This document shows positions 27,255 to 58,540 of a stretch of DNA of 64,000 nt, piece by piece. The position numbers and the translations under genes were made by a program. Numbering within the stretch: position 1 is the first letter of the stretch; each line of letters starts with the position of its first letter. The DNA comes from Alphaproteobacteria bacterium. Lineage in GTDB: Bacteria > Pseudomonadota > Alphaproteobacteria > UBA828. The DNA lies in assembly GCA_965243315.1 (NCBI GenBank), contig CBDEUP010000007.1:21064-85063 (forward strand). Direction: 5' to 3'. A model generated the notes under the pieces. It ran no database searches. It was not told the origin of the DNA and worked only from the letters and a program-made list of their open reading frames with translations.

Positions 27255-28217
27255 TCAGAAAACCGGCGCCGGGCCGAGGTTTCGGCTCAGCGCGTCGAGG
27301 CAGCCCTGGCGCACGGCGACGCCGAGCTCGACCTGGTCGAGGATGGCGCTCCGCGTGATGTCGTCGGCGACCTCGCTGTCGATCTCGACGCCCCGGTTCA
27401 TGGGCCCCGGATGGAGGATCAGCGCGTTCTCCCGCGCTTGGGCGAGCTTAGCCCGGTCGAGGCCGTAGAAGCGGAAGTACTCGCGGACCGACGGCACGAA
27501 GGTGCCCTGCATGCGCTCCTGCTGCAGGCGCAGCATCATGATGACGTCGCAGCCCGCGAGGCCTGCCCGCATGTCGTGGAAGACCTCCACGCCCATGCGC
27601 TCGATCGCCGCCGGCACCAGCGTGGGCGGCGCGATGATGCGCACGTGCGCGCCCATGGTGTTGAGCAGCAGGATGTTGGAGCGGGCGACCCGGCTGTGCA
27701 TCACGTCGCCGCAGATGGCGACCCGGAGTCCCTCGATCCGGCCGAAGCGGTGGCGGATGGTGAGCGCATCCAGCAGCGCCTGGGTGGGATGCTCGTGGCT
27801 GCCGTCGCCCGCGTTGATGACGCCGCACTCGACGTGATTGGAGAGCAGCAGGGCGGCGCCGGCATCGGGGTGGCGCATGATCAGCATGTCGGGGTGCATG
27901 GCGTTCAGCGTCATCGCCGTGTCGATGAGCGTCTCGCCCTTCTTGATCGCCGAGCTTGCCACCGCGATGTTGATGACATCGGCGCCGAGCCGCTTGCCCG
28001 CGAGCTCGAACGAGGTGCGCGTGCGGGTCGAGGTCTCGAAGAAGAGCAGGACGACAGTGCGCCCGCCGAGCAGGCTCTTGCGCTTCTGCACCTCGCGGTT
28101 GAGCGCGACGTAGCCTTCGGAGAGATCGAGCAGGTGGGTGATGGCGCCGGCGGAAAGCCCCTCGATCCCCAGCAGATGCCGGTCGCTGAAGATCGAAGGC
28201 AGGAGCGCAGGCTGCAT
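27255..28217 (-). CDS. pyrB: Aspartate carbamoyltransferase catalytic subunit
   Basis: [28 protein letters not shown]. Confidence 0.96.
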
Positions 28218-28326
28218 CGCTAGACCTTGTAGGTGCACGGGCGCCGATATGCAAGGGTTAGCGGTCTGCGGATGCGCCGGCAAGTCGCCGGGGCGCTATG
28301 GCGGCCGCGCCCCTACACCCCCACCC

Positions 28327-28482
28327 CGTCATGCGCGGGCATGTCCGGACTCGTTTCGGGCATCTCCAGCGACCGTGTTTTCCCTCGTACCGTCATGCGC
28401 GGACTTGATCCGCGCATCCATATCAGCCAAGCCCGCCATGCGCCGGCCAAACACGTGGATGGCCGGACAAACCCGACCACGA
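28327..28482. repeat. Alphaproteobacterial REP-like palindromic repeats
   Basis: CGTCATGCGCGGACTTGATCCGCGCATCCA...GTGGATGGCCGGACAAACCCGACCACGA; related units near 28327 and 28747-28794. Confidence 0.65.
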
Positions 28483-28553
28483 GAGCGCGGGAGCATGGGG
28501 GGCCGAAAGAGCACCCCATCACGAAAGTGGGATTCGGAGGAGCGTTAGTCTCA

Positions 28554-28622
28554 TGCGGGATTCGCCGGGATTAGGTGGGATTCGCCGGGACAAAGTGGGA
28601 TTAAGTGAGATAAGCGGGATTC
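28554..28622. repeat. Degenerate tandem array, seven ~10-bp units with GGGATT core
   Basis: tgcgggattc gccgggatta ggtgggattc gccgggacaa agtgggatta agtgagataa gcgggattc. Confidence 0.75.
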
Positions 28623-29196
28623 TACGGCAGCGTTTTCTGCCCGAGAGTCGCCCAAGAGCCCGCCCGACGGTCCCGTCATCGCCCACCCAGCGCGCGCGGA
28701 CATTGCGTCGCGCCCCGCAACATCCGCCGCACGCGATGCCCCATCTCGTCACGCGCGGACCTGCCCGGACTCGTTCCGGGTATCCGCGCATCCATATGGC
28801 AACCCCACCGGCTACGACCCATTCGCTCGCGCACATCATGGCGCGATCCTGGCACGGCTCGCGAGCAACAGGCACCGCACCATGGTCCGATGAGACTAGC
28901 GAAGCGACAGAGGACAGGCCATCGCTCCCGCCCCCCTTTTTACTCCGACCCGCTCCACCGCGTTGGGCTCCGTCGTTAGAGCGCTGTCCTCAACGGTGAC
29001 CCAACTGCCCTTCTGCCTACGCACCGCACAGCACACGGTCTTCCGAACACGCAGATTGGAATGCGCCTTTCCACATCTCTGAGAACGCATCCCTTGGAAA
29101 TACCTTTTGCGATTGAGGTCATCTGCAAGGGTAGACCGCGATACATTCGATGGCCTAAAGTACCGAATAAGAATATTGTCGAGGAGAACTCAACTA

Positions 29197-30128
29197 GTGG
29201 CTGAGCATCAGACCTCCGCCAGCGAATGGCTTGCTGATTTGGCCAACCGCATGCAGAGCGACATTGAAGCAGGGGCTGCCCCCCAAGCCGAGAGACTTAC
29301 CGTACGGCAGTTTCTGAGCCGATTTGGATATTATCGACGAGGCCCCAACGTGGTCAGCACTATCCGAAGCGCTCTTGAGACGTGCAGTCTGCGTACTTCT
29401 CCCGACTTCGAATACGAATATGTCGACAACTATATCTCCGTTGAACTCGATCCAAACGTTGAAGAAATGGCCGCAGAAGAACAATTGATTGACCCTACTG
29501 TGCGTATTGGTATTTTGCCCGCTTCTCATAATGTACCCGTTTCAGTTACTCCTAATGATTCCTTAGTTAAGGCGATAACTCTCATGCGAATTGACGACTA
29601 CTCCCAACTTCCTGTCATGACAAATGAACGGGAAGTAAAGGGAGTAGTTAGTTGGCGTTCTATAGGCGAGGCGCAAGCAGACGCACGCAACCCTACAGTG
29701 GTTCGGGAGTGCATGGAGAACGCGCACGAAGTCGATACAAGAATGATGCTTGCGGACGCAACAGAGAGGATCTGCAGTCATGGTTACGTCTTGATCCGGG
29801 GAGAGGACAGGAAAATTACAGGTATTGTAACAGCGGCAGATTTAGCGGATCAGTTTAAGCAGCGTGCACATCCTTTTTTGCTTATCGGTGAAATTGAGCA
29901 CCACTTACGGAATCTTGTTCGACGCAAGTTCACGAAGGATGAGTTCGTTGAGGCATCGGGCGGAGACGAGCACGTCAATGGCCCGGATGATCTTACGTTT
30001 GGTGGCTATTGTCGACTACTGCAAAATGAAGAGTCCTGGAGTAAATTGAAATTGAATGTTGACCGAAAAGAGCTGATAAAGCGCTTGAATACTATTCGAT
30101 TGATTCGAAATGAAATTATGCATTTTTC
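29197..30128 (+). pseudogene. CBS-pair + HEPN protein, 5' part (interrupted by transposon)
   Basis: CBS motifs YSQLPV...GVVSW and ITGIVTAADL; HEPN IEHHLR...RNEIMH; continues in frame at 35717-35815. Confidence 0.82.
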
Positions 30129-30159
30129 GGGGATTATGTAGGAGAGTGCCGAAAGCCGC

Positions 30160-30411
30160 TCACTCGGTGGGCTTCGGTCGGCGCACATAGCGGATGCTCA
30201 CAGGCTTGGTGAGGGCTTCCACCGCCTGATCGAACGTCGCGTCGACCCGCACATCTTCCTCAAGCTCCGCAGCGCTCGGCTGGTAGTCCGAGCTGACAAT
30301 CTCGACTTCGCGGGGCTTCGCTTTCGCCGACCGGTATCTGTGCAGCTTCGCGCGTGCCACAGGCTTCGCCGCAGGGGCCGGGCGGCCTTTGGCTGAAGCG
30401 TTGTCTGCCAT
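30160..30411 (-). CDS. Small hypothetical protein at transposon end
   Basis: 83 aa, YQPSAAELEEDVRVDATFDQAV; stop 5 nt from the IR. Confidence 0.6.
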   Translation of the reverse strand: MADNASAKGRPAPAAKPVARAKLHRYRSAKAKPREVEIVSSDYQPSAAELEEDVRVDATFDQAVEALTKPVSIRYVRRPKPTE

Positions 30412-30494
30412 GAGATGCGACCCGAGCCTCAATCGTTCCCCACAGCACACTTAGTCCATTGCGCCGCCCCGCGCAACCGCGCACACTCATTCTC

Positions 30495-30631
30495 GTAGAC
30501 ACTTCATGCGTCCCGCTCTGTCGGGTCGCCCGCTGAATAGAATAGCCCTAGACCCGACGTGACTGATCATCGCGTCCGGCGAATAGGCGGGGTCATCTCG
30601 CGTTCGCGTGAAGTGTCTACAACGGCCCGGC
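30495..30631 (+). ncRNA. Unrecognised conserved structured RNA motif, copy 2 (leader of lipoprotein gene)
   Basis: 16-bp closing stem 30495-30510/30605-30620; GTCGGGTC/GACCCGAC stem; three blocks identical to copy 1. Confidence 0.7.
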
Positions 30632-30666
30632 ACCAGCCGCCGCCGAGGCAACGCGGGAGAAGCCCC

Positions 30667-31539
30667 ATGAGATCGCCAATCTGTGTCGCGGCACTGACCG
30701 CGGCGGTTGCCCTGTTTTCCTTGCAAGCCTGTGGTGGAGGATTAGTTCATCATCTCCTGGATGGAAACGATGGGAATGACCAACCGGCAACGACAGAGCC
30801 ACCGGCGCCATCATCCCCCCAAATCAAGAGTGAGATCAGCGCCATCTTCGCGCGATCCAACACCCTCATCGAGGAGGAGGATCGTCACCCTCTGTTCGGC
30901 CCTCAGCGATATGCGGGCCAAATCCCGTCGAGGTTCAGCCTCAGAAGGGAACTTGAGGGGGAATACGAGTTTCTTGCCGAAGAGCAGGGCTTTTCTACTG
31001 CGGCTGCCGTCTGGACCACAACGGAGAGACAGAGATGGGTGACGGGCCACTTGAGCCTCGGGGGATGGATGGAGCACAGCTTCTTCCTGGTGAACCAGAC
31101 CGTCTCGGCTGACACTTATGGTGACTATGTGTCGGTCTACCTCGACATCTTTTCCATCGGTGCCGCGAGCGGTACGAACCCCTCTCCTCTTGGCGGCAGC
31201 GCTACCTGGGCCGGCATCATGGCCGGGGTAGACGAGAGCTTGGCAGGACCTGGCATCTCTCGCCTCGAGCATGAAGAGGACAATCTCTACCTCGGAGACG
31301 CCACGCTCACGATCGACGACTTCGCGATGCCGGAAGTGGATGTCCATTTCACCAACGTAACTAACGCAGACTCCGGCCGCCGGCTCAGGGATGTGAACTG
31401 GTTCGATCTGCCTGTGAATGCCGGCGGCTTCGAGGGACGCGGCATTCTCGGCCGCTTCTACGGCCCACAGCACCAAGAGGTAGGAGGGGTCTTCCAGTTC
31501 GGCACAATCAACGGTGCCTTCGGCGCCCTGCGCCATTGA
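30667..31539 (+). CDS. Lipoprotein with C-terminal TbpB-like beta-barrel
   Basis: Lipobox LQAC-GGG; GSATWAGIMAG...GRFYGPQHQEVGGVF...GAFGA, parallel to the C-terminus of 3369-5084. Confidence 0.8.
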   Translation: MRSPICVAALTAAVALFSLQACGGGLVHHLLDGNDGNDQPATTEPPAPSSPQIKSEISAIFARSNTLIEEEDRHPLFGPQRYAGQIPSRFSLRRELEGEYEFLAEEQGFSTAAAVWTTTERQRWVTGHLSLGGWMEHSFFLVNQTVSADTYGDYVSVYLDIFSIGAASGTNPSPLGGSATWAGIMAGVDESLAGPGISRLEHEEDNLYLGDATLTIDDFAMPEVDVHFTNVTNADSGRRLRDVNWFDLPVNAGGFEGRGILGRFYGPQHQEVGGVFQFGTINGAFGALRH

Positions 31540-31552
31540 CGGAGGGTGAATC

Positions 31553-31819
31553 ATGGATCAGTTCGCGGGCACCTTCTTCGCGATAGGCTGGTTCGTTCCC
31601 CCGCTCATTCTCCTAATCGCCTTGGCCTGCTGGCTCTGTCCTAAAGCCGAGAAAAGGGTATGGCCGTGGGTAATCGTGGCCTTCATCCCGATCGTCAATT
31701 TCTTCGCGCCGTATATCCTCCTTGCCCAGGCAGTAGGCGTTGCGCTGGATCGGACCGAATACGAGTGGGAGCCAGAGGACGAATGGGAACCGGAGGACCA
31801 AGACGCCCTGCGGGAGTGA
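31553..31819 (+). CDS. Small membrane protein with acidic tail
   Basis: GGAGG RBS; two hydrophobic segments; EWEPED twice. Confidence 0.65.
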   Translation: MDQFAGTFFAIGWFVPPLILLIALACWLCPKAEKRVWPWVIVAFIPIVNFFAPYILLAQAVGVALDRTEYEWEPEDEWEPEDQDALRE

Positions 31820-31851
31820 TTGACCCCGCTCCCGGTTTGTTCCACTAATAG

Positions 31852-32056
31852 TGAGCGGCCGCGACGCATCGCGGTGGCTCAGAAATGCCGAAGACTGGGG
31901 GGTCCGCCCGACTTCCCGGCCCTCGACAGAACTGAGTTGAACTGAAGTAGAGGGTGCCTCCGCTTAGAGGCGCTGTGTTCTGTGCTCGTGATTCCCCAAT
32001 CCCGAGCCCCGAATATAGCGACAAAAGCGGACTCCCGCAACGCAAGGAGTCTGCCC
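31852..32056 (+). ncRNA. Candidate structured leader RNA (five hairpins, last one hides the RBS)
   Basis: Stems at 31852-31881, 31887-31920, 31926-31983, 31984-32007, 32027-32054; single copy, no covariation available. Confidence 0.4.
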
Positions 32057-32335
32057 ATGCGGAACGAAGATGGTCGTGAATTTGACGTCAAACCCCGCGG
32101 GTCTACCTGGAGACCGGATCCAAGGCCCCCAACTCTCCGCATGAAGATATGGCTACAGGCTCAGGCCCATCGAGCTCGAGAAGAGATGGACCTCGACAGC
32201 TTCGATGACAGGTGGAACCTCACAGGCTTCGAGCGCGTAGCCGTTGGCCGTGAGCCCTTCTGGATTGGGAAGACTTCCGCCTTCGACGCGCCTACGAGCG
32301 ACGTCAGAACGCCCTCGCTCAAGCTCGTTGGCTGA
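32057..32335 (+). CDS. Hypothetical protein (92 aa)
   Basis: AGGAG at 32045-32049 then ATG; no family recognised. Confidence 0.45.
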   Translation: MRNEDGREFDVKPRGSTWRPDPRPPTLRMKIWLQAQAHRAREEMDLDSFDDRWNLTGFERVAVGREPFWIGKTSAFDAPTSDVRTPSLKLVG

Positions 32336-32371
32336 TCCGGGTCTGTGGCTTCAGGCTGTAGGAGAAGGCCG

Positions 32372-32779
32372 ATGAGGGTGCTGCCGGTTGCGACGCTTGC
32401 GGCCATCCTATTCGCAACGTATGTCGCGAAGGCGGAAGAGACAGAGCGGGTTGCGGCTCCTCTCCGCCTGTCTACACTGGAACGCAAGGCGGTAGAGGAG
32501 GGCGTCGCATCGATGTTCGAACTCCCAACTGCCCGCCGCACCACCGTTATCGTGCATGTCATGGCCGGGAAAATTCCCAGTGGCACGGAGTATGTCTGCG
32601 GCTACTTCGATTTTATCGGTGGAGATGGAAAATACATCGGAGAGAAGCCGTTTATGGGTGTCTTCATTCCCAGTACTGCGGCCTTCATCCGCAAGACCTT
32701 CGTTCCACTGTCTATCCCAAGGGAGAAGGAGATGGACCAGACACTCAAGTTCTGCCAGGGAATCGGCTTACCGATGTAG
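32372..32779 (+). CDS. Secreted/periplasmic hypothetical protein
   Basis: AGGAG RBS; signal peptide ending AKA; YVCGYF...GKYIGEKPF; two Cys. Confidence 0.65.
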   Translation: MRVLPVATLAAILFATYVAKAEETERVAAPLRLSTLERKAVEEGVASMFELPTARRTTVIVHVMAGKIPSGTEYVCGYFDFIGGDGKYIGEKPFMGVFIPSTAAFIRKTFVPLSIPREKEMDQTLKFCQGIGLPM

Positions 32780-32825
32780 GGCGTGCTCGACCTGTGACGC
32801 CGATTTCAAACTGAGACATTACCCA

Positions 32826-33680
32826 TTATTCAGTTATTTGTTGCTGATCATCGTCATCCTCCCCCTCTCCATCATCCTTGTAGACGAGCTGAAACGTATT
32901 TTCGAGGATTCCCAGCCAAAGCTTCCGTTCCTTGGCTGGCCATCGCTTCCCGGACTTGGGCAACCGACGAATCAGCCCCATGATGATGGGATCGATGTTG
33001 TCAGGAGGTATGTTGCCATCGCCACCCCCACCCCCACCCCCACCATCCTTGCCGCCCCCACCATCCTTCTTGGAAGGGTCGTCTGGTGGAGGTGTCTTGT
33101 TTGTCGAGGCAGACTCATCCCCTTCTGGAAACCCCGGCTTAATAAAGTTTCCTGTTTGCGAATCAATGAATTGTGCAACTTGGGCTGATTTCACGAACGT
33201 TTGTCGTGCGCGCTCGGCTTGCTTTGGTGCCACGCCCAAATCTTTTGCCATTCGCTCCAAAGCAGCGGCCGGCGGCAAAGGGAATCCCTGCTGCTGATCA
33301 TAAATCTTCCGAAACAGCGGAACGTTGAGAAAGGCCGTCGCCTTCGCCCGTGCTGCCCCCTGCGGACTGAGAACCTGTTGCCCCAGGTTGGTGAGCCGGA
33401 CGCTGTTGCCATGCTGAGAATCAATCAGTCCGAATATGCGTGCTGCCGAATAGCGGGAACGAAATGTGCCACCCGTCGCACTCATATTCATCCACGCGGC
33501 AAGTTGGGTGACCTGGCACTGGATGCCCGCCCTCTCGTTGATCACGCGCGCAAGATCAATCGCATTGCCGAGATCGCTGTATGGGAACGCGATGTCGGAC
33601 CTCTCACGCTTCTGCTCTGCGCCGTTGCTCGTGTCGGTAGCGGCTGTGGTTTCAGTCTGTTCGGTTGTCTCAGTGACCAT
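32826..33680 (-). CDS. Hypothetical protein, probable winged-helix DNA-binding
   Basis: 284 aa; FPYSDL...TFRSRYSAARIFGLI...VRLTNLG wHTH-like pattern; Gly-rich linker. Confidence 0.7.
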   Translation of the reverse strand: MVTETTEQTETTAATDTSNGAEQKRERSDIAFPYSDLGNAIDLARVINERAGIQCQVTQLAAWMNMSATGGTFRSRYSAARIFGLIDSQHGNSVRLTNLGQQVLSPQGAARAKATAFLNVPLFRKIYDQQQGFPLPPAAALERMAKDLGVAPKQAERARQTFVKSAQVAQFIDSQTGNFIKPGFPEGDESASTNKTPPPDDPSKKDGGGGKDGGGGGGGGDGNIPPDNIDPIIMGLIRRLPKSGKRWPAKERKLWLGILENTFQLVYKDDGEGEDDDDQQQITE

Positions 33681-33861
33681 TTGTAGGCTCCCGTTGCCTG
33701 GTCGCGGTCATGTGTTGGGGGCGTATATCATGGACGCGCGAGCGTGACAAGAAAAAATGCGTAAATCCGCGTTTCTCTCTACGGTTCGCTACGCGATGTC
33801 ATACCGCCGCTTGCGCGAGGTGGGCATTTATCGTATTAGAGGCGGCAGGAAGGAGGTGCGT

Positions 33862-33951
33862 ATGGCTAGAAGAGAGTGGAGCCCCCACCGGTATCGCCGA
33901 GCGCTGGCGGGGGCGAGGACAAACAGCAGGGGCCGCTGCGCAGTCCCCTAA
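33862..33951 (+). CDS. Putative 29-aa leader peptide upstream of suppressor tRNA, ending in TAA
   Basis: AGGAGGT RBS at 33851-33857; MARREWSPHRYRRALAGARTNSRGRCAVP; the TAA lies in the loop of an 11-bp stem (33929-33939/33959-33969). Confidence 0.5.
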   Translation: MARREWSPHRYRRALAGARTNSRGRCAVP

Positions 33952-33984
33952 GACACAAGCAGCGGCCCCGAATCGGCCCGTCTA

Positions 33985-34073
33985 GGAGGCGTGGCAGAGT
34001 GGTCGAATGCAGCGGTCTTTAAAACCGCCAGACCTCCCGGGTCTCGTGGGTTCGAATCCCACCGCCTCCGCCA
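33985..34073 (+). tRNA. tRNA with Ser body and UUA anticodon (ochre suppressor)
   Basis: Acceptor GGAGGCG/CGCCTCC, G73, CCA; anticodon arm GCGGT-CTTTAAA-ACCGC; long variable arm AGACCT/GGGTCT; T arm GTGGG-TTCGAAT-CCCAC. Confidence 0.92.
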
Positions 34074-34084
34074 GACCCCACTAA

Positions 34085-34121
34085 GGCCGACGTGTCCATA
34101 GCACGTCGGCCCATATTTTTT
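34085..34121 (+). terminator. Intrinsic terminator after tRNA
   Basis: GGCCGACGTG-tccatag-CACGTCGGCC followed by catatttttt. Confidence 0.75.
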
Positions 34122-34124
34122 AAA

Positions 34125-34200
34125 TCAATCCTTTGCCCAGCGCTTCGCAGCGGCCTTCCGCACGATCTCTCGCCGCCGTTCTGCCGAGAGGGCGAGTGTC
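34125..34200 (-). pseudogene. Decayed small basic protein gene downstream of the transposase
   Basis: Reads LSAERRREIVRKAAAKRWAKD* without a clear start; motif recalled from small ORFs of IS-associated regions. Confidence 0.4.
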
Positions 34201-34260
34201 TCTCGCGATGTGCCGAGCCGGGATGGGGTCCCGGCTCTCCTGCGTCGGCTCGGTAGGTTA

Positions 34261-35232
34261 CTACGACCTCGTGCCGCTCGATAGGCCGTTGTCTGCGATC
34301 AGCTCCCGGTAGCGCAGCCGCTTCCCGACCCCGCCATCGGCGACCGTGCCCATCATGTCGATGGTGTCGCGATCGCGCATGTTGTGCCGGGCTGCGAATT
34401 CCTGGACGTAGCGGTCCATGTGCTTCGGCGACAGCTTGTGGAACGTGCCGGTATGGCTCCGCTTCAACATGGACCAAAATGACTCGATTCCCTGCGTCCC
34501 CACGCCATCGTCCCGGACATACTCACCGGCCGAGTGATTCACGCTCTCGCGGTTCGGCAGGCCGCTATAGGCGCGCGCCTCGTCGGTGTAGATGGTGGCG
34601 CCTGGGGCCGCGTGGGTGCCGACAAAGGCGCTCAGGGTCTCTTTGTCCGCCGCCTCGATCGTCTGAGCGCGCACGGCACCGGTAGCCCTGTCGCGGGCAC
34701 CGGCGACGATGGTCTTGCCCAGGTCCGGCTTCTGGCGGGCCTCTCGGCGCTTCTTGCCGTGCATGTTCTTCATCTTGCCGCCGATGTAGGTCTCGTCCAC
34801 CTCAACCGGGCCAGAGAACACGCCGCCTTCGTTCGCCAGGGCAACCCGCAGCCGATGGGCGAGGAACCACGCGCTGCGCTGGTTGATGTTCAGGTCGCGA
34901 TGCAGCTTCATGGACGAAACGGACTTCAAGCTGGTGGTCATCAGGTAGGTGGCGATCATCCACACCTGGAAGCCGAGCTTGGAGCCCTCCATGACCGTGC
35001 CGGACTTCGCGCTGAAGCGCTTGGCACATTCCTTCTCGCGGCACCGGAAAGGCATCGTCTTGTGTTTCGCGCCGGTCTGCACGTTGACCGAACCGCAGTG
35101 CGGGCAGGTGATCCCGTCCGGCCAGCGACGCTCGATGAACCACGCCTCAGCGGTGGCGTCATCCGGGAACTTCCGCATGAGCTCGACCAGCGACATGCCT
35201 TCGCGGTGAGATTTTCCGGGTGCCTTCGCCAT
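34261..35232 (-). CDS. IS1595-family transposase
   Basis: Zn ribbon CPHC...CREKEC, HTH, VEVDETYIGG, IYTDE, IESFW, RLRYRELI. Confidence 0.95.
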   Translation of the reverse strand: MAKAPGKSHREGMSLVELMRKFPDDATAEAWFIERRWPDGITCPHCGSVNVQTGAKHKTMPFRCREKECAKRFSAKSGTVMEGSKLGFQVWMIATYLMTTSLKSVSSMKLHRDLNINQRSAWFLAHRLRVALANEGGVFSGPVEVDETYIGGKMKNMHGKKRREARQKPDLGKTIVAGARDRATGAVRAQTIEAADKETLSAFVGTHAAPGATIYTDEARAYSGLPNRESVNHSAGEYVRDDGVGTQGIESFWSMLKRSHTGTFHKLSPKHMDRYVQEFAARHNMRDRDTIDMMGTVADGGVGKRLRYRELIADNGLSSGTRS

Positions 35233-35473
35233 GGTGATCGCTTCTCTGAGAACACCATGATTTTACAGGAGAGTGCCGAAGACGTCAAGCCGGATATCAC
35301 GCTGGTTCTCTTGTTCACGGGTTAGACGTTAGGGTAGCCTGAAACGACATCGGGCCGGGATTATCCCGGCCCTCCGAAGGTGGCGATCGCCACGAGTGTC
35401 TGCCCGACGCTCGTGATCATGCCGCAGCCGCTGTGCATGGTCAATGACGATTTCCGCCAGGAAGGAAATCGTC

Positions 35474-35677
35474 ATGACCAAGAAGCACCCCATGGGTTTC
35501 GCCATCACCAGCACTAAGACGCGGCCACGCCAGTTATCACCGCATGAGAGACAGGTACTGTTCACCGCAGAGGCCGCCCGCTTCAGGGAGAATATGGACC
35601 CAGCCAGTCACGATGAAGGTTGGGAGCTTGCGCGACAAGAAGTAGAAGCCGGACTCTGGCCTGGCATTTCACACTGA
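35474..35677 (+). CDS. Small hypothetical protein
   Basis: 67 aa after AAGGA; divergent from the transposase. Confidence 0.35.
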   Translation: MTKKHPMGFAITSTKTRPRQLSPHERQVLFTAEAARFRENMDPASHDEGWELARQEVEAGLWPGISH

Positions 35678-35716
35678 GGCACTACCGGGATTTCGGCACT
35701 GTCCTACATAATCCCC

Positions 35717-35815
35717 CATTTTTCACCTGACGACCACGAGCCGACCGACATTGAAAAACTGGAGAGGGTGGCTCAATTTTTCCGTGGCCTTACGCGTTTA
35801 CAGCGAACAGATTGA
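35717..35815 (+). pseudogene. CBS-HEPN protein, separated 3' end
   Basis: HFSPDDHEPTDIEKLERVAQFFRGLTRLQRTD* continues RNEIMH across the TSD; 340 aa when rejoined. Confidence 0.85.
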
Positions 35816-36049
35816 CTATCCTGAGGTTCCGAATTTAATGAGACACACGCACACGAAAGCAAGTAGCTCAGCTCACGAGAATCCCAACGAGTAGGTGGAA
35901 CTCGATTTTCTACTTTAGGACCAAGTGTTGGCAGACGACCTAGTGCTTAGCCCAGCCTCCGCACATTGACAGTATGCAACTTCCGCTAACCTACACATGT
36001 CTATGCTATTCTCACCGTCCAGCCCACGAGAGAATTATCGAGAGCACGC

Positions 36050-37222
36050 ATGACCTCCAACCGAATGCCTGGCCTGGATTTCGGGCTCGGCGAGACAGCC
36101 GACATGATCCGCTCGTCGGTCGAGAGCTTCGCGCAGGCGGAGATCGCGCCGCGCGCGGAAGAGATCGACACGAGCAACGAGTTCCCGCGCGACCTCTGGC
36201 CCAGGCTCGGCGCGCTTGGCCTGCTCGGCATCACCGTGGAGGAGGAGGAAGGCGGCAGCGGCCTCGGCTACCTGGAGCATTGCGTCGCCATGGAGGAGGT
36301 GAGCCGGGCCTCCGCCTCGGTCGGCCTCAGCTACGGCGCGCATTCCAACCTCTGCGTCAACCAGATCAGGCTCAACGGCACGCCCGCCCAGCGCGCCCGC
36401 CACCTGCCCGAGCTGATCTCGGGCGAGCATGTCGGCGCGCTCGCCATGAGCGAGCCGGGCGCAGGCTCGGACGTCGTCGGCATGCGCACCCGCGCCGAAC
36501 GCCGGGGCGATCGCTACGTCCTCAACGGGTCCAAAATGTGGATCACCAACGGGCCGGACGCCGAGGTCCTCGTGGTCTACGCCAAGACCGACCCCGAAGC
36601 CGGTAGCCGGGGCATCACCGCCTTCCTGATCGAGCAGGGCATGGCCGGCTTTTCCACCGCCCAGAAGCTCGACAAGCTCGGCATGCGGGGCTCCAACACG
36701 TCCGAGCTGGTGTTCGAGGACTGCGAGGTGCCGGCGGAGAACGTGATCGGCGAGGTGGGCGGCGGCGTGGCCGTGCTGATGAGCGGGCTCGACTACGAAC
36801 GCGCGGTGCTCGCCGCCGGGCCCCTGGGCATCATGCGCGCCTGCATGGACATCGTGCTGCCTTACGTCCACCAGCGCCAGCAATTCGGCCGGCCTATCGG
36901 CACCTTCCAGCTCATGCAGGGCAAGATCGCGGACATGTACACGGCGATGAACGCGGCCCGCGCCTACGTCTACGCCGTGGCGCGCGCGTGCGACCGGGGC
37001 GAGACCAGCCGCAAGGACGCCGCCGGCGCCATCCTCTTCGCCGCCGAGAAGGCGACCTGGATGGCGCTCGAGGCGATCCAGGCGCTGGGCGGCAACGGCT
37101 ACGTCAACGAGTTCGCCACCGGGCGCCTCCTGCGCGACGCCAAGCTCTACGAGATCGGTGCCGGCACCAGCGAGATCCGCCGCATGCTCATCGGCCGCGA
37201 GCTCTTCGAGGAGACGGGGTAG
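36050..37222 (+). CDS. ivd: Isovaleryl-CoA dehydrogenase
   Basis: [49 protein letters not shown]. Confidence 0.92.
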
Positions 37223-56521: not shown

Positions 56522-58540
56522 ATGGACATTGCAATAGACATGGGCGGAACATTTACGGACGCCATCACCCGGCGGGCCGATGGTTCCTGGTTTGTTGGGA
56601 AATCTGCCACCACGCCAGGAAGGCTGGAAGCAGGCTTCTTGGCCGCGCTGGCCACCGTCTGTGAGGATCCGACCGAAATTTCGGCGTTAAGGCACGGTAC
56701 GACGGTCGTCGTGAATGCACTTCTAACTTCGGATCATCCCGATTGTCTCCTGATCACGACCGACGGTTTCAGAGATGTTTTGGAGATCATGCGTGGGGAC
56801 CGAAAAGATCTGTTCAATCTCGCGCAAAAGAAGCCGGAACCGCTGATCAAGCGAAAGCAGCGATTGGAAGTGCGTGAACGAATTGCCGCGGACGGAAGTG
56901 TCGTTGAGCCGCTTCAAGCGGATGAGATCAAGCGCGTTGTCGATGAGATCGAGGCTTCGGGTGTGCGAAGCGTCGCGGTCTGCCTGTTGTTCTCGTTTCG
57001 AAATCCAGCACACGAGCTCTTGCTGGGAAAATCGATCTCGGAACGCCTGGGCGACAGAGTGTTTGTCTCTCTTTCCCACGAGGTTTTGCCTCACTATCGC
57101 GAGTTTGAAAGGACAAGCACCACCTGCATCAATGCCATTGCCCGTCCCATCATGAGCAACTATCTGGAGGGCTTGGAACGGTCGCTTCCCCATTCCTTGA
57201 CGGAAGACGGATTCCGGATCATGGAGTCTTCCGGCGGCCTTGCAGATCCGCTTCAAACGCGTCGCGTGCCGGTGAAGTCCCTGCTCTCCGGTCCCGCTGG
57301 CGGGGTGATTTTAGCACTTGAGATCGCCAAGGCGCTCGGGCGAAGCAATGTGATCAGTTTCGACATGGGGGGCACGAGCACCGACGTGGCGGCGGTCACG
57401 AACGGAGAACCGGATCGAAATACCTACATCGAGCTCGTGGGATATCCGATCCAAATTCCTTGCCTCGACATCGTCAGTGTCGGCGCTGGTGGTGGCAGCA
57501 TCGCTTGGGTTGATCAAGGCGGGACCATTCTCGTTGGCCCTCGTTCCGCCGGCGCGGTTCCCGGCCCTGCCTGCTATAGGAAGGGTGGTGTGGAGCCGAC
57601 CGTGACTGACGCGGCGATCGCTCTCGGCCGCTACAATCCCCGTTTGTCCATCGGCGGCGGGCTCCGCCTCGACCGGGAACGAGCGTGGAAATCCATTGAG
57701 GCGCTGGCGGCACGACTGGGACTCAGCCGCGAAGAGACGGCGTGGGGCATCTTGCGCATCGTCAACAGCAATATGGCGGATGCAATCCGGTCAATCTCCA
57801 TCGAACGCTCCCGCGACCCGCGCGACTATACCCTGGTTGCATTTGGTGGTGGTGGGGGCGCTCACGGCCTGGAGGTTGCGGCGGAACTGGAGATGTCTTC
57901 CGTGGTCGTTCCCGCCTACCCAGGCGTCGCATCCGCTCAAGGTATGTTACTTGCCGATGGGCGCCGCGAGCGCCTGAAGACGATCTTTACGCCGTTGGCG
58001 GATCTCGAAGCAATGGCGCTCCACGACATGTTCACACAGATGAGCGAGGAAACGCTTGCCGAGCTTCACGACGACGCTAACAACGGCAATGTGGTTGTTT
58101 CCGCTGCACTGGATCTCAGGTACGCCGGACAAACGCACGAGATCACCATTCCAGTCGAGTTAGGGCAGATCGATACCGACAAGGCGGCGGAGAGCTTTCA
58201 CTGCTCTCATGAGGCGCGTTACGGGCATTCGCTTCGTGAAAGCTCAGTCGAAGCCGTGAACATTCGTGTCGCTGCTGTGAGTGTCGCCGAGAACAAGGAG
58301 TTCGGCGCTCCTCGTTGGCCAGAGCTGGAGGTTGGCGATCAACGCCGAGAAGTCTACTGGGGACCCGAACAGGGCTGGCTCGAGACGCAGATTCTCACGC
58401 GTAAAGATGTCGAGACGATAGAGCCGACACTTGGGCCTGCCGTCATCGAACAGTCCGACGCAACCATCGTCGTTCCACCAGACGCCAGCTGCTCGGCGGC
58501 GAAGCCGGGCTTCCTCGAACTGAAGTGGCTTAGACAATGA
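56522..58540 (+). CDS. Hydantoinase A / 5-oxoprolinase ATP-dependent subunit
   Basis: DMGGTFTD, HGTT, SGPAGG, DMGGTSTD, GAGGGS, PTVTDA. Confidence 0.92.
   Translation: MDIAIDMGGTFTDAITRRADGSWFVGKSATTPGRLEAGFLAALATVCEDPTEISALRHGTTVVVNALLTSDHPDCLLITTDGFRDVLEIMRGDRKDLFNLAQKKPEPLIKRKQRLEVRERIAADGSVVEPLQADEIKRVVDEIEASGVRSVAVCLLFSFRNPAHELLLGKSISERLGDRVFVSLSHEVLPHYREFERTSTTCINAIARPIMSNYLEGLERSLPHSLTEDGFRIMESSGGLADPLQTRRVPVKSLLSGPAGGVILALEIAKALGRSNVISFDMGGTSTDVAAVTNGEPDRNTYIELVGYPIQIPCLDIVSVGAGGGSIAWVDQGGTILVGPRSAGAVPGPACYRKGGVEPTVTDAAIALGRYNPRLSIGGGLRLDRERAWKSIEALAARLGLSREETAWGILRIVNSNMADAIRSISIERSRDPRDYTLVAFGGGGGAHGLEVAAELEMSSVVVPAYPGVASAQGMLLADGRRERLKTIFTPLADLEAMALHDMFTQMSEETLAELHDDANNGNVVVSAALDLRYAGQTHEITIPVELGQIDTDKAAESFHCSHEARYGHSLRESSVEAVNIRVAAVSVAENKEFGAPRWPELEVGDQRREVYWGPEQGWLETQILTRKDVETIEPTLGPAVIEQSDATIVVPPDASCSAAKPGFLELKWLRQ

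Follow-up and report, generated by a model that had tools for sequence, protein, structure and literature searches.

Nonsense suppressors of Escherichia coli, such as the serine amber suppressor supD and the UUA ochre suppressors, are normal transfer RNA (tRNA) bodies with a one-base change in the anticodon, and the serine identity of a tRNA is independent of its anticodon. Here we describe a stop-reading tRNA and its leader in a 64,000-nucleotide stretch of DNA (the window, hereafter) from an Alphaproteobacteria bacterium (GenBank assembly GCA_965243315.1, contig CBDEUP010000007.1, positions 21,064 to 85,063). The unit occupies positions 33,862 to 34,121 of the window, inside a transposon, between a gene of no known family that we call Y and the remnant of a small gene that we call X. 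Like the E. coli suppressors, it has an ordinary tRNA body in which a single anticodon base change leads to stop reading. Unlike them, it is no laboratory mutant of a host gene, being conserved across genomes, borne by transposons and preceded by a long structured leader. To our knowledge, natural conserved stop-reading tRNAs outside phages are rare, and this one is found on transposons of free-living alphaproteobacteria with the standard code, next to a leader that matches no described RNA family.

On balance, and with slightly more confidence than doubt, we read this 260-bp stretch as one transcription unit within the transposon, made up of a leader of ~135 nt that would act in cis, a serine-type tRNA predicted to read UAA, and a terminator. 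The leader itself is probably a generic, translated cis-leader, a trait of a mobile module composed of Y, the leader, a tRNA or tRNA-like gene, and either X or an IS1-like transposase.

Suppressor tRNAs of phages have been described with flanking theta ribozymes, which are similar to those of hepatitis delta virus and serve the processing of the tRNA 3' end (PMC10879173). The window resembles these phages in that a mobile suppressor tRNA is joined to a conserved structured RNA thought to act in maturation or regulation. It differs in that the RNA is located 5' of the tRNA, matches no ribozyme in Rfam, holds an open reading frame (ORF) and is carried by a transposon and not a phage. The term transporter insertion sequence (IS), which comes from Siguier, Gagnevin and Chandler 2009 (cited in PMC3129680), has been applied to elements of the IS1595 and IS1 families. 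The element in the window is a transporter IS, with terminal inverted repeats, an 8-bp target duplication, a DDE transposase and passenger genes; it is unlike them in what the passengers are, namely a stop-reading tRNA, a structured leader, Y and X.

The trp- and his-type attenuators and tnaC place a short translated ORF across RNA hairpins that precede the regulated gene. The leader described here also has a short ORF, predicted to be translated, that overlaps hairpins upstream of the tRNA, but there is no terminator/antiterminator pair and no run of cognate codons, and the regulated product would be a tRNA. Release factor 2 regulates itself through an in-frame UGA in prfB. The same logic underlies a feedback idea that we discuss below, but unlike in prfB, the cassettes do not consistently keep a stop that their own product reads. 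A synthetic RNase P riboswitch uses base pairing in the 5' flank of its pre-tRNA to control RNase P cleavage (PMC7897497). The likeness is that pairing of the 5' flank, here by a pseudoknot, would decide cleavage, and the difference is that the riboswitch is man-made and driven by a ligand, whereas in the window the trigger would be a translating ribosome. A literature search, judged mostly without full texts, gave no account of an IS-borne tRNA or of a leader ORF before a tRNA, and the leader RNA motif is apparently undescribed.

The suppressor tRNA and its relatives

The tRNA gene was located with ARAGORN, Rfam and alignment:

33985..34073, plus strand: serine-type class II tRNA with anticodon UUA, G73 and an encoded CCA

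ARAGORN places the anticodon TTA at 34019-34021, and the Rfam tRNA model RF00005 matches the gene over its full length with 61.8 bits, well above the gathering score of 29. The anticodon loop, CUUUAAA (34017-34023), has the features of an ochre suppressor, with 7 nt, U33 and a purine at position 37. The gene also has a long variable arm, G73 and the pairs G1-C72, G2-C71 and A3-U70, which together we take to be the serine identity set. The host enzyme would charge the tRNA with serine, which would be inserted at UAA and, by wobble, at UAG. It can be aligned with three tRNA-Ser genes of the host, but the host's own tRNA-Ser(UGA) is only 80% identical to it, so we consider it an imported serine-type ochre suppressor.

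We scanned one genome per species, covering ~186,000 species, for a 22-nt word taken from the D-arm and anticodon stem, and inspected all 114 stretches that contained it. Among the first 80 word matches, 64 are ordinary tRNA-Ser(UGA) genes, which over the scanned stretch differ from the window tRNA by one base, in the anticodon loop. The acceptor stem of the window tRNA is common to 8 of the 114 stretches (relatives carry L labels, and genomes G labels, where they have to be told apart). The anticodon is UUA in L038, L089, L095, L101 and L138, CUA in L120 and UAA in L036, and L033 has an 8-nt anticodon loop. When metagenomes were scanned, 6 further UUA copies were found among 7 matches. The tRNA body and the loop CUUUAAA are identical across eight distinct cassettes despite strongly diverged leaders. 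L101 carries a compensatory change in its T-stem, and the CUA variant carries another in its anticodon stem. In these comparisons, selection is visible on the tRNA. None of the statements made here depend on G088, an unpublished genome. An earlier note on this DNA, made from the sequence alone, had called the gene a suppressor tRNA, and both the anticodon and the comparison of tRNAs agree that it is a conserved stop-codon reader.

Searching plasmids returned only matches of tRNA length with no leader, and viral contigs gave 0 matches to the tRNA pattern. One RNA run with shared words yielded a contig only over 33377-33543, which lies inside Y, plus short pieces common to ordinary tRNAs.

In the long open frames of this genome, a rough proxy that includes spurious frames, the stop is TGA in 58%, TAG in 30% and TAA in 12%, which suggests that TAA is the rarest stop in this genome. 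In the cassettes, 15 whole Y, X and Z genes found by motifs (Z is an IS1-like transposase) end in TGA (10), TAG (4) or TAA (1). We also considered programmed read-through of the cassette genes and rejected it, as no gene in 28000-36200 was convincingly lengthened when TAA and TAG were translated as serine.

Several other tRNA or tRNA-like genes were noted. In a record titled as a Rhodobacteraceae metagenome-assembled genome, L036:691-784 has the same serine-type acceptor stem and D-arm with anticodon UAA, which corresponds to the leucine codons UUA and UUG, so this tRNA would place serine at leucine codons; a covariance-model search found no leader upstream of it. Anticodon loops of 8 nt are found behind the leader in L033:1992-2082 (genome G017) and L158:1415-1490 (genome G003), as CCUUAAAA and CCUUACAA, respectively, and the G017 copy is also altered in the T-loop and at position 10. 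These tRNA-like genes with 8-nt loops may be decaying copies or four-base decoders. Elsewhere in the window, ARAGORN calls an 82-nt tRNA-Glu(CTC) at 57493-57574, which has no Rfam tRNA match at the gathering score and is possibly a false or degenerate call.

The leader RNA and its short ORF

The unit has the following features in addition to the tRNA:

33811..33839, plus strand: weak promoter-like site, TTGCGC, 17 nt, TATTAG (found by eye)
33851..33857, plus strand: Shine-Dalgarno sequence AGGAGGT (read from the sequence)
33862..33951, plus strand: short ORF of the leader, 29 codons beginning M-A-R-R-E-W-S-P, from the ATG at 33862 to the stop TAA at 33949-33951
33882..33913, plus strand: hairpin H1, with arms 33882-33891 and 33904-33913 and loop 33892-33903 (from minimum-energy folds)
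33929..33969, plus strand: hairpin H2, a perfect 11-bp stem (33929-33939 with 33959-33969) and a 19-nt loop that contains the TAA (from sequence and covariation)
33896..33977, plus strand: pseudoknot helix between the H1 loop at 33896-33900 (GCCGA) and the spacer at 33973-33977 (TCGGC) (from covariation)
34085..34121, plus strand: intrinsic terminator, an 11-pair stem (34085-34111) followed by a T run (from a terminator scan)

By covariation, the leader is a conserved structured RNA of ~135 nt with two GC-rich hairpins and a pseudoknot helix. We aligned nine distinct leaders (alignment A2), all of which fold into H1 and H2 with energies of -58 to -65 kcal/mol and with arm sequences that vary between lineages; the H1 fold is also predicted in further relatives outside this alignment. 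RNAalifold on the nine leaders recovered H2 and the long-range helix that joins the H1 loop to the spacer, and a repeated run on 12 leaders agrees. The 14 pairs of H2 and the pseudoknot are paired in 98.4% of alignment cells, compared with 25-56% when the partners are slid, and compensatory changes on both sides occur in 7 of the 14; the observed values were reached in 0 of 500 shuffles. The pseudoknot helix itself consists of five pairs, paired in 100% of cells, two of them compensatory, and its spacer arm sits 8-12 nt 5' of the tRNA. In metagenome contigs of relatives, A33900G is matched by T33973C and C33939T by G33959A, both compensatory.

We compared the leader with known RNA classes. Over 33847-33984, no Rfam family was found at the gathering score, and a search at E up to 10 gave only a 15-bit match at chance level. 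Among the Rfam models, no self-cleaving ribozyme matched the leader, and the T-box model did not match it even at E up to 10. Contrary to a T-box specifier, the triplet in the H2 loop does not track the anticodon. The architecture of an attenuator was also looked for: after H2 comes GAATCGGCCC, which lacks a U run, and a terminator scan was empty between H2 and the tRNA. A covariance model built from 12 leaders found a single copy in the genome that the window comes from and copies in 4 of 150 relatives (that genome included). It also picked up copies with weaker scores in L147, L149 and L150, each next to a Y homologue.

As for expression signals, a consensus scan did not recover a promoter at 33811..33839, and by eye the relatives have better promoter-like sites at the equivalent position. 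The terminator after the tRNA is kept in window-type relatives. The Shine-Dalgarno sequence and the 29-codon ORF, whose TAA is followed by a gap of 33 nt before the tRNA, are located where the earlier note had reported them, as is the perfect stem with the TAA in its loop. The combination of a Shine-Dalgarno sequence, an ATG and an ORF of at least 24 codons ending within the leader was seen in 1.2% of 5000 leader shuffles, and it recurs in relatives.

In a model-guided alignment of 16 leaders, we observed an ATG located 0, 3 or 6 nt before a conserved Arg-Arg codon pair and in frame with it in all 16. The pair is AGA-AGA, AGG-AGG, CGG-AAA or TTG-AGG (TTG in one leader), and purine-rich, GGAG-like Shine-Dalgarno runs precede the ATG in the other leaders. 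The leader frame of the window is also open further upstream to an ATG at 33757, which would give a 64-aa product; this extension was rejected, since DNA homology with the nearest relative, G017, begins only at 33852, and the 29-codon form is therefore the conserved one. Given that the Shine-Dalgarno sequence and short ORF are unusual compared with shuffles, and that the ATG keeps its frame with the Arg-Arg codons in all 16 leaders, the ORF is probably translated by ribosomes.

What the leader may do

The reading that we favor is that the leader would act in cis on the downstream RNA. The pseudoknot helix would pair nucleotides 8-12 before the RNase P site, and a ribosome on the short ORF would have to melt both H1 and the pseudoknot. 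This melting would free the 5' flank of the tRNA for RNase P, so translation could gate tRNA maturation, and the suppressor tRNA would be released as the leader is translated, whichever stop codon ends the leader. If the leader does gate maturation, the engineered RNase P riboswitch would have an equivalent in nature, and a mobile element would have a way to set the dose of a suppressor that could be toxic.

Several observations count against this reading. The leaders of L147 and L150 are not followed by any tRNA, so the primary role of the leader may not concern the tRNA. The leader ORFs range from 15 to 43 codons. Most leaders have their stop within the H2 loop, but the ORF of L147 stops after H1, that of L150 stops in the linker, and those of L151 and L149 extend beyond H2 (the L149 ORF was counted by eye from an ATG, and the script gave an in-frame GTG four codons later), so the family has no fixed rule that places the stop in this loop. 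One metagenome relative is missing the T of the leader TAA. The conserved motif GGGGCGAGGACAAA is in another reading frame in L152, so conservation of the leader is mostly at the level of RNA. Two other pairings were tried and found to be unsupported: a helix between the Shine-Dalgarno sequence and the spacer (the last 14 nt before the tRNA) did not outdo shuffled sequences (a fraction of 0.04-0.61 had energies as low or lower), and kissing between the H2 loop and the anticodon loop was weak and inconsistent (fraction 0.02-0.81), with no matching change in the CUA variant. The gating mechanism itself is an inference.

It is possible, though doubtful, that the leader is instead a small structured RNA in its own right, acting with Y, a putative winged-helix binder of nucleic acids, during the life of the transposon, in which case the tRNA would be add-on cargo or a 3' handle and the ORF a by-product. 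Y and the leader are constant divergent neighbors, the leaders of L147 and L150 run straight into a terminator, and conservation in the central part of the leader is independent of the reading frame. The N-terminal part of Y is predicted to have a tandem winged-helix fold, based on a model of a Y relative made from a 30-sequence alignment (predicted local distance difference test 85.5). The model resembles BrxA (Z-score 7.8, root-mean-square deviation 3.9, 141 residues aligned), where a Z-score below 8 may reflect only a common arrangement, and the FokI recognition domain (Z-score 7.3, also middling). A pure RNA motif, however, poorly explains an ATG in frame with Arg-Arg in 16 of 16 leaders together with a Shine-Dalgarno sequence. 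Also, the tRNA body and anticodon are better conserved than the leader, which argues that the tRNA is not a mere handle.

We consider it improbable that the product that matters is an Arg-rich micropeptide, with the RNA structure and the tRNA serving its expression or stability. The peptides do share an N-terminus of the form M-(x)-R-R-[V/D/E], kept with varied Arg codons, and those of the window and L158 are both 29 residues long with, by eye, about half of their positions alike. Past these first residues the leader peptides are not conserved and their lengths vary as given above, while the codon differences among window-type leaders mostly change the amino acid, several of them being due to stem pairing.

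The earlier note had proposed that the leader stop is tuned to the suppressor in a negative feedback loop, in which the suppressor would read the leader TAA, ribosomes would overrun the pre-tRNA, and maturation or termination would fall. In the window, the parts fit together: the leader stop is TAA, the anticodon is UUA, and past the TAA the frame has 49 open codons through the whole tRNA to a TAG at 34099-34101, in the loop region of the terminator, all as that note had read them. TAA is also kept across five window-type sequences. However, open runs of 49 codons start at 48% of plus-strand positions in the window and 34% of positions in 33000-35000, and are found in 28% of shuffles of 33000-35000. 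Given these rates, and that two of the three frames are open across the whole tRNA, the read-through frame is no more than would be expected by chance, as the note had itself allowed.

The homologous cassettes, which the note had suggested checking, keep the Shine-Dalgarno sequence and a short ORF but not the TAA. In the eight distinct UUA cassettes, the leader stop is TAA in four (window, L141, L142, L101) and TGA in the other four (L038, L089, L095, L146), which represent two of the four deep lineages, and UUA cannot read TGA. Conversely, the stop is still TAA before the CUA variant in G001 and before the tRNA-like copy of G017 with its 8-nt loop and damaged T-loop. Where UAC-type or otherwise odd tRNA-like genes are located behind the leader, the stop is TAA in L154, TGA in L152 and L151, and TAG in L158, and in the leaders that lead to a terminator with no tRNA it is TAG in L147 and TAA in L150. 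The read-through frame is likewise not conserved: the next in-frame stop is past the tRNA in the window, L142 and L101, within the anticodon loop in L033 and the L038 group, and 2 nt 5' of the tRNA in L141 and L146.

We therefore did not find a leader stop that is readable by its product with the match kept in relatives. Since leader stop and anticodon do not co-vary, the TAA/UUA match in the window is best read as a coincidence of a single sequence, which dissolves on comparison with relatives. The window tRNA could physically read its own leader stop, with no sign of this being a selected function. With this and the missing T of the TAA noted above, we regard feedback through the leader stop as very improbable.

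Returning to the cis-leader reading, a broader version of it is tentative and, in our estimate, unlikely: Y, the translated pseudoknotted leader and the tRNA would form an undescribed transposon recoding module, in which release of the tRNA is gated by ribosomes and perhaps by binding of Y. Such a module could switch the reading of stops in the host on or off with its translation state, for the benefit of the element or in conflicts with phages. The family, so read, would comprise IS1- and IS1595-type elements with ochre or amber suppressors, with 8-nt anticodon loops, or with a serine body and a leucine anticodon.

Gene Y, gene X and the transposon

The genes next to the unit and the element that carries them are as follows:

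32826..33680, minus strand: gene Y, 284 aa, divergent from the leader, no known family
34125..34190, minus strand: remnant of gene X, its last 21 codons and stop (from translation; in complete cassettes X converges on the tRNA)
34261..35232, minus strand: IS1595-family transposase, 323 aa (Pfam DDE_Tnp_IS1595, E 3.6e-39; NCBIfam transpos_IS1595)
30129..35716, no strand assigned: IS1595-type transposon with passenger genes, 5,588 bp (from inverted repeats and target duplication)

Y has no match in Pfam, NCBIfam, PHROG or PADLOC, and PADLOC gave no match for any of the 21 proteins of the island and the cassettes. A sequence search of the PDB returned no relative of Y at E up to 1, Pfam on 30 members of the Y family gave only stray matches below threshold, and a Foldseek search with the Y model found nothing at E 0.001 or better. 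Y is 58% identical to the Y of L141 and 26% (E 8e-6) to that of L101. The family comprises 90 clusters, all named hypothetical. It is present in 8 of 401 sampled genomes of the class, and no relatives were found in viral contigs. By tblastn, Y and the leader in relatives are always neighbors and divergently transcribed.

Full-length X, found in L038 and L101, is a small basic protein of 85-96 aa, and its automatic Atlas label is "histone H1 family". Within the same genus, the unit is found in G017, which is 91% identical only over 33852-34192, and in G001, where the contig begins inside the leader. In records titled as Parvibaculum and Hyphomicrobium, as well as in contigs from metagenomes, Z (minus) comes first, followed by Y (minus), leader and tRNA (plus) and X (minus). 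The L038 cassette has perfect 17-bp inverted repeats at both ends, making it a 2.4-kb transposon. We also noted a second subfamily (L151, L152, L154 and L159) in which the leader and a class I, UAC-type tRNA-like gene are located directly upstream of an IS1-like transposase on the same strand, with a conserved hairpin and a AATATATAGC-like motif between the tRNA-like gene and the transposase.

The mobility proposed for the cassette in the earlier note is supported by the element around it. The terminal inverted repeats at 30129-30157 and 35688-35716 are 29 nt long and 93% complementary, and they are flanked by a perfect 8-bp target duplication, CATTTTTC, at 30121-30128 and 35717-35724. The transposase scores 179 bits against NCBIfam transpos_IS1595, for which the cutoff is 75. 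The tRNA unit lies within a low-GC island of the GC-rich window. A CBS-domain anti-phage gene (window 29107-30128 and 35725-35815; NCBIfam DS11, E 1.9e-94, profile positions 1-286 of 305) is split by the transposon ahead of its last 29 codons, which resume in frame right after the right-hand duplication.

Near-copies of the IS1-type terminal repeat of L038 are located at 32807-32823 and 35670-35686 (minus strand), with 1 and 2 mismatches, respectively. They point the same way and enclose a segment with Y, the tRNA unit and the IS1595 transposase, and two such matches were seen in 0 of 100 shuffles. This arrangement suggests a decayed IS1-like element with Y and the tRNA, nested inside the IS1595-type element.

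Elsewhere in the genome that the window comes from (G000), a stretch of contig C2 (~285238-287416) resembles the left end of the transposon, 30141-30320 of the window (78%) and the 3' end of the transposase gene, 34261-34321 (82%). It is ~2 kb shorter between those ends and has no tRNA according to ARAGORN, and we note it as a possible sibling of the element that lacks the tRNA cassette. A third, internal terminal repeat of IS1595 type is located at 35259-35280 of the window, just upstream of the start of the transposase. Together with the right end of the transposon, it bounds a unit of ~460 bp that holds a 77-codon ORF (35444-35677).

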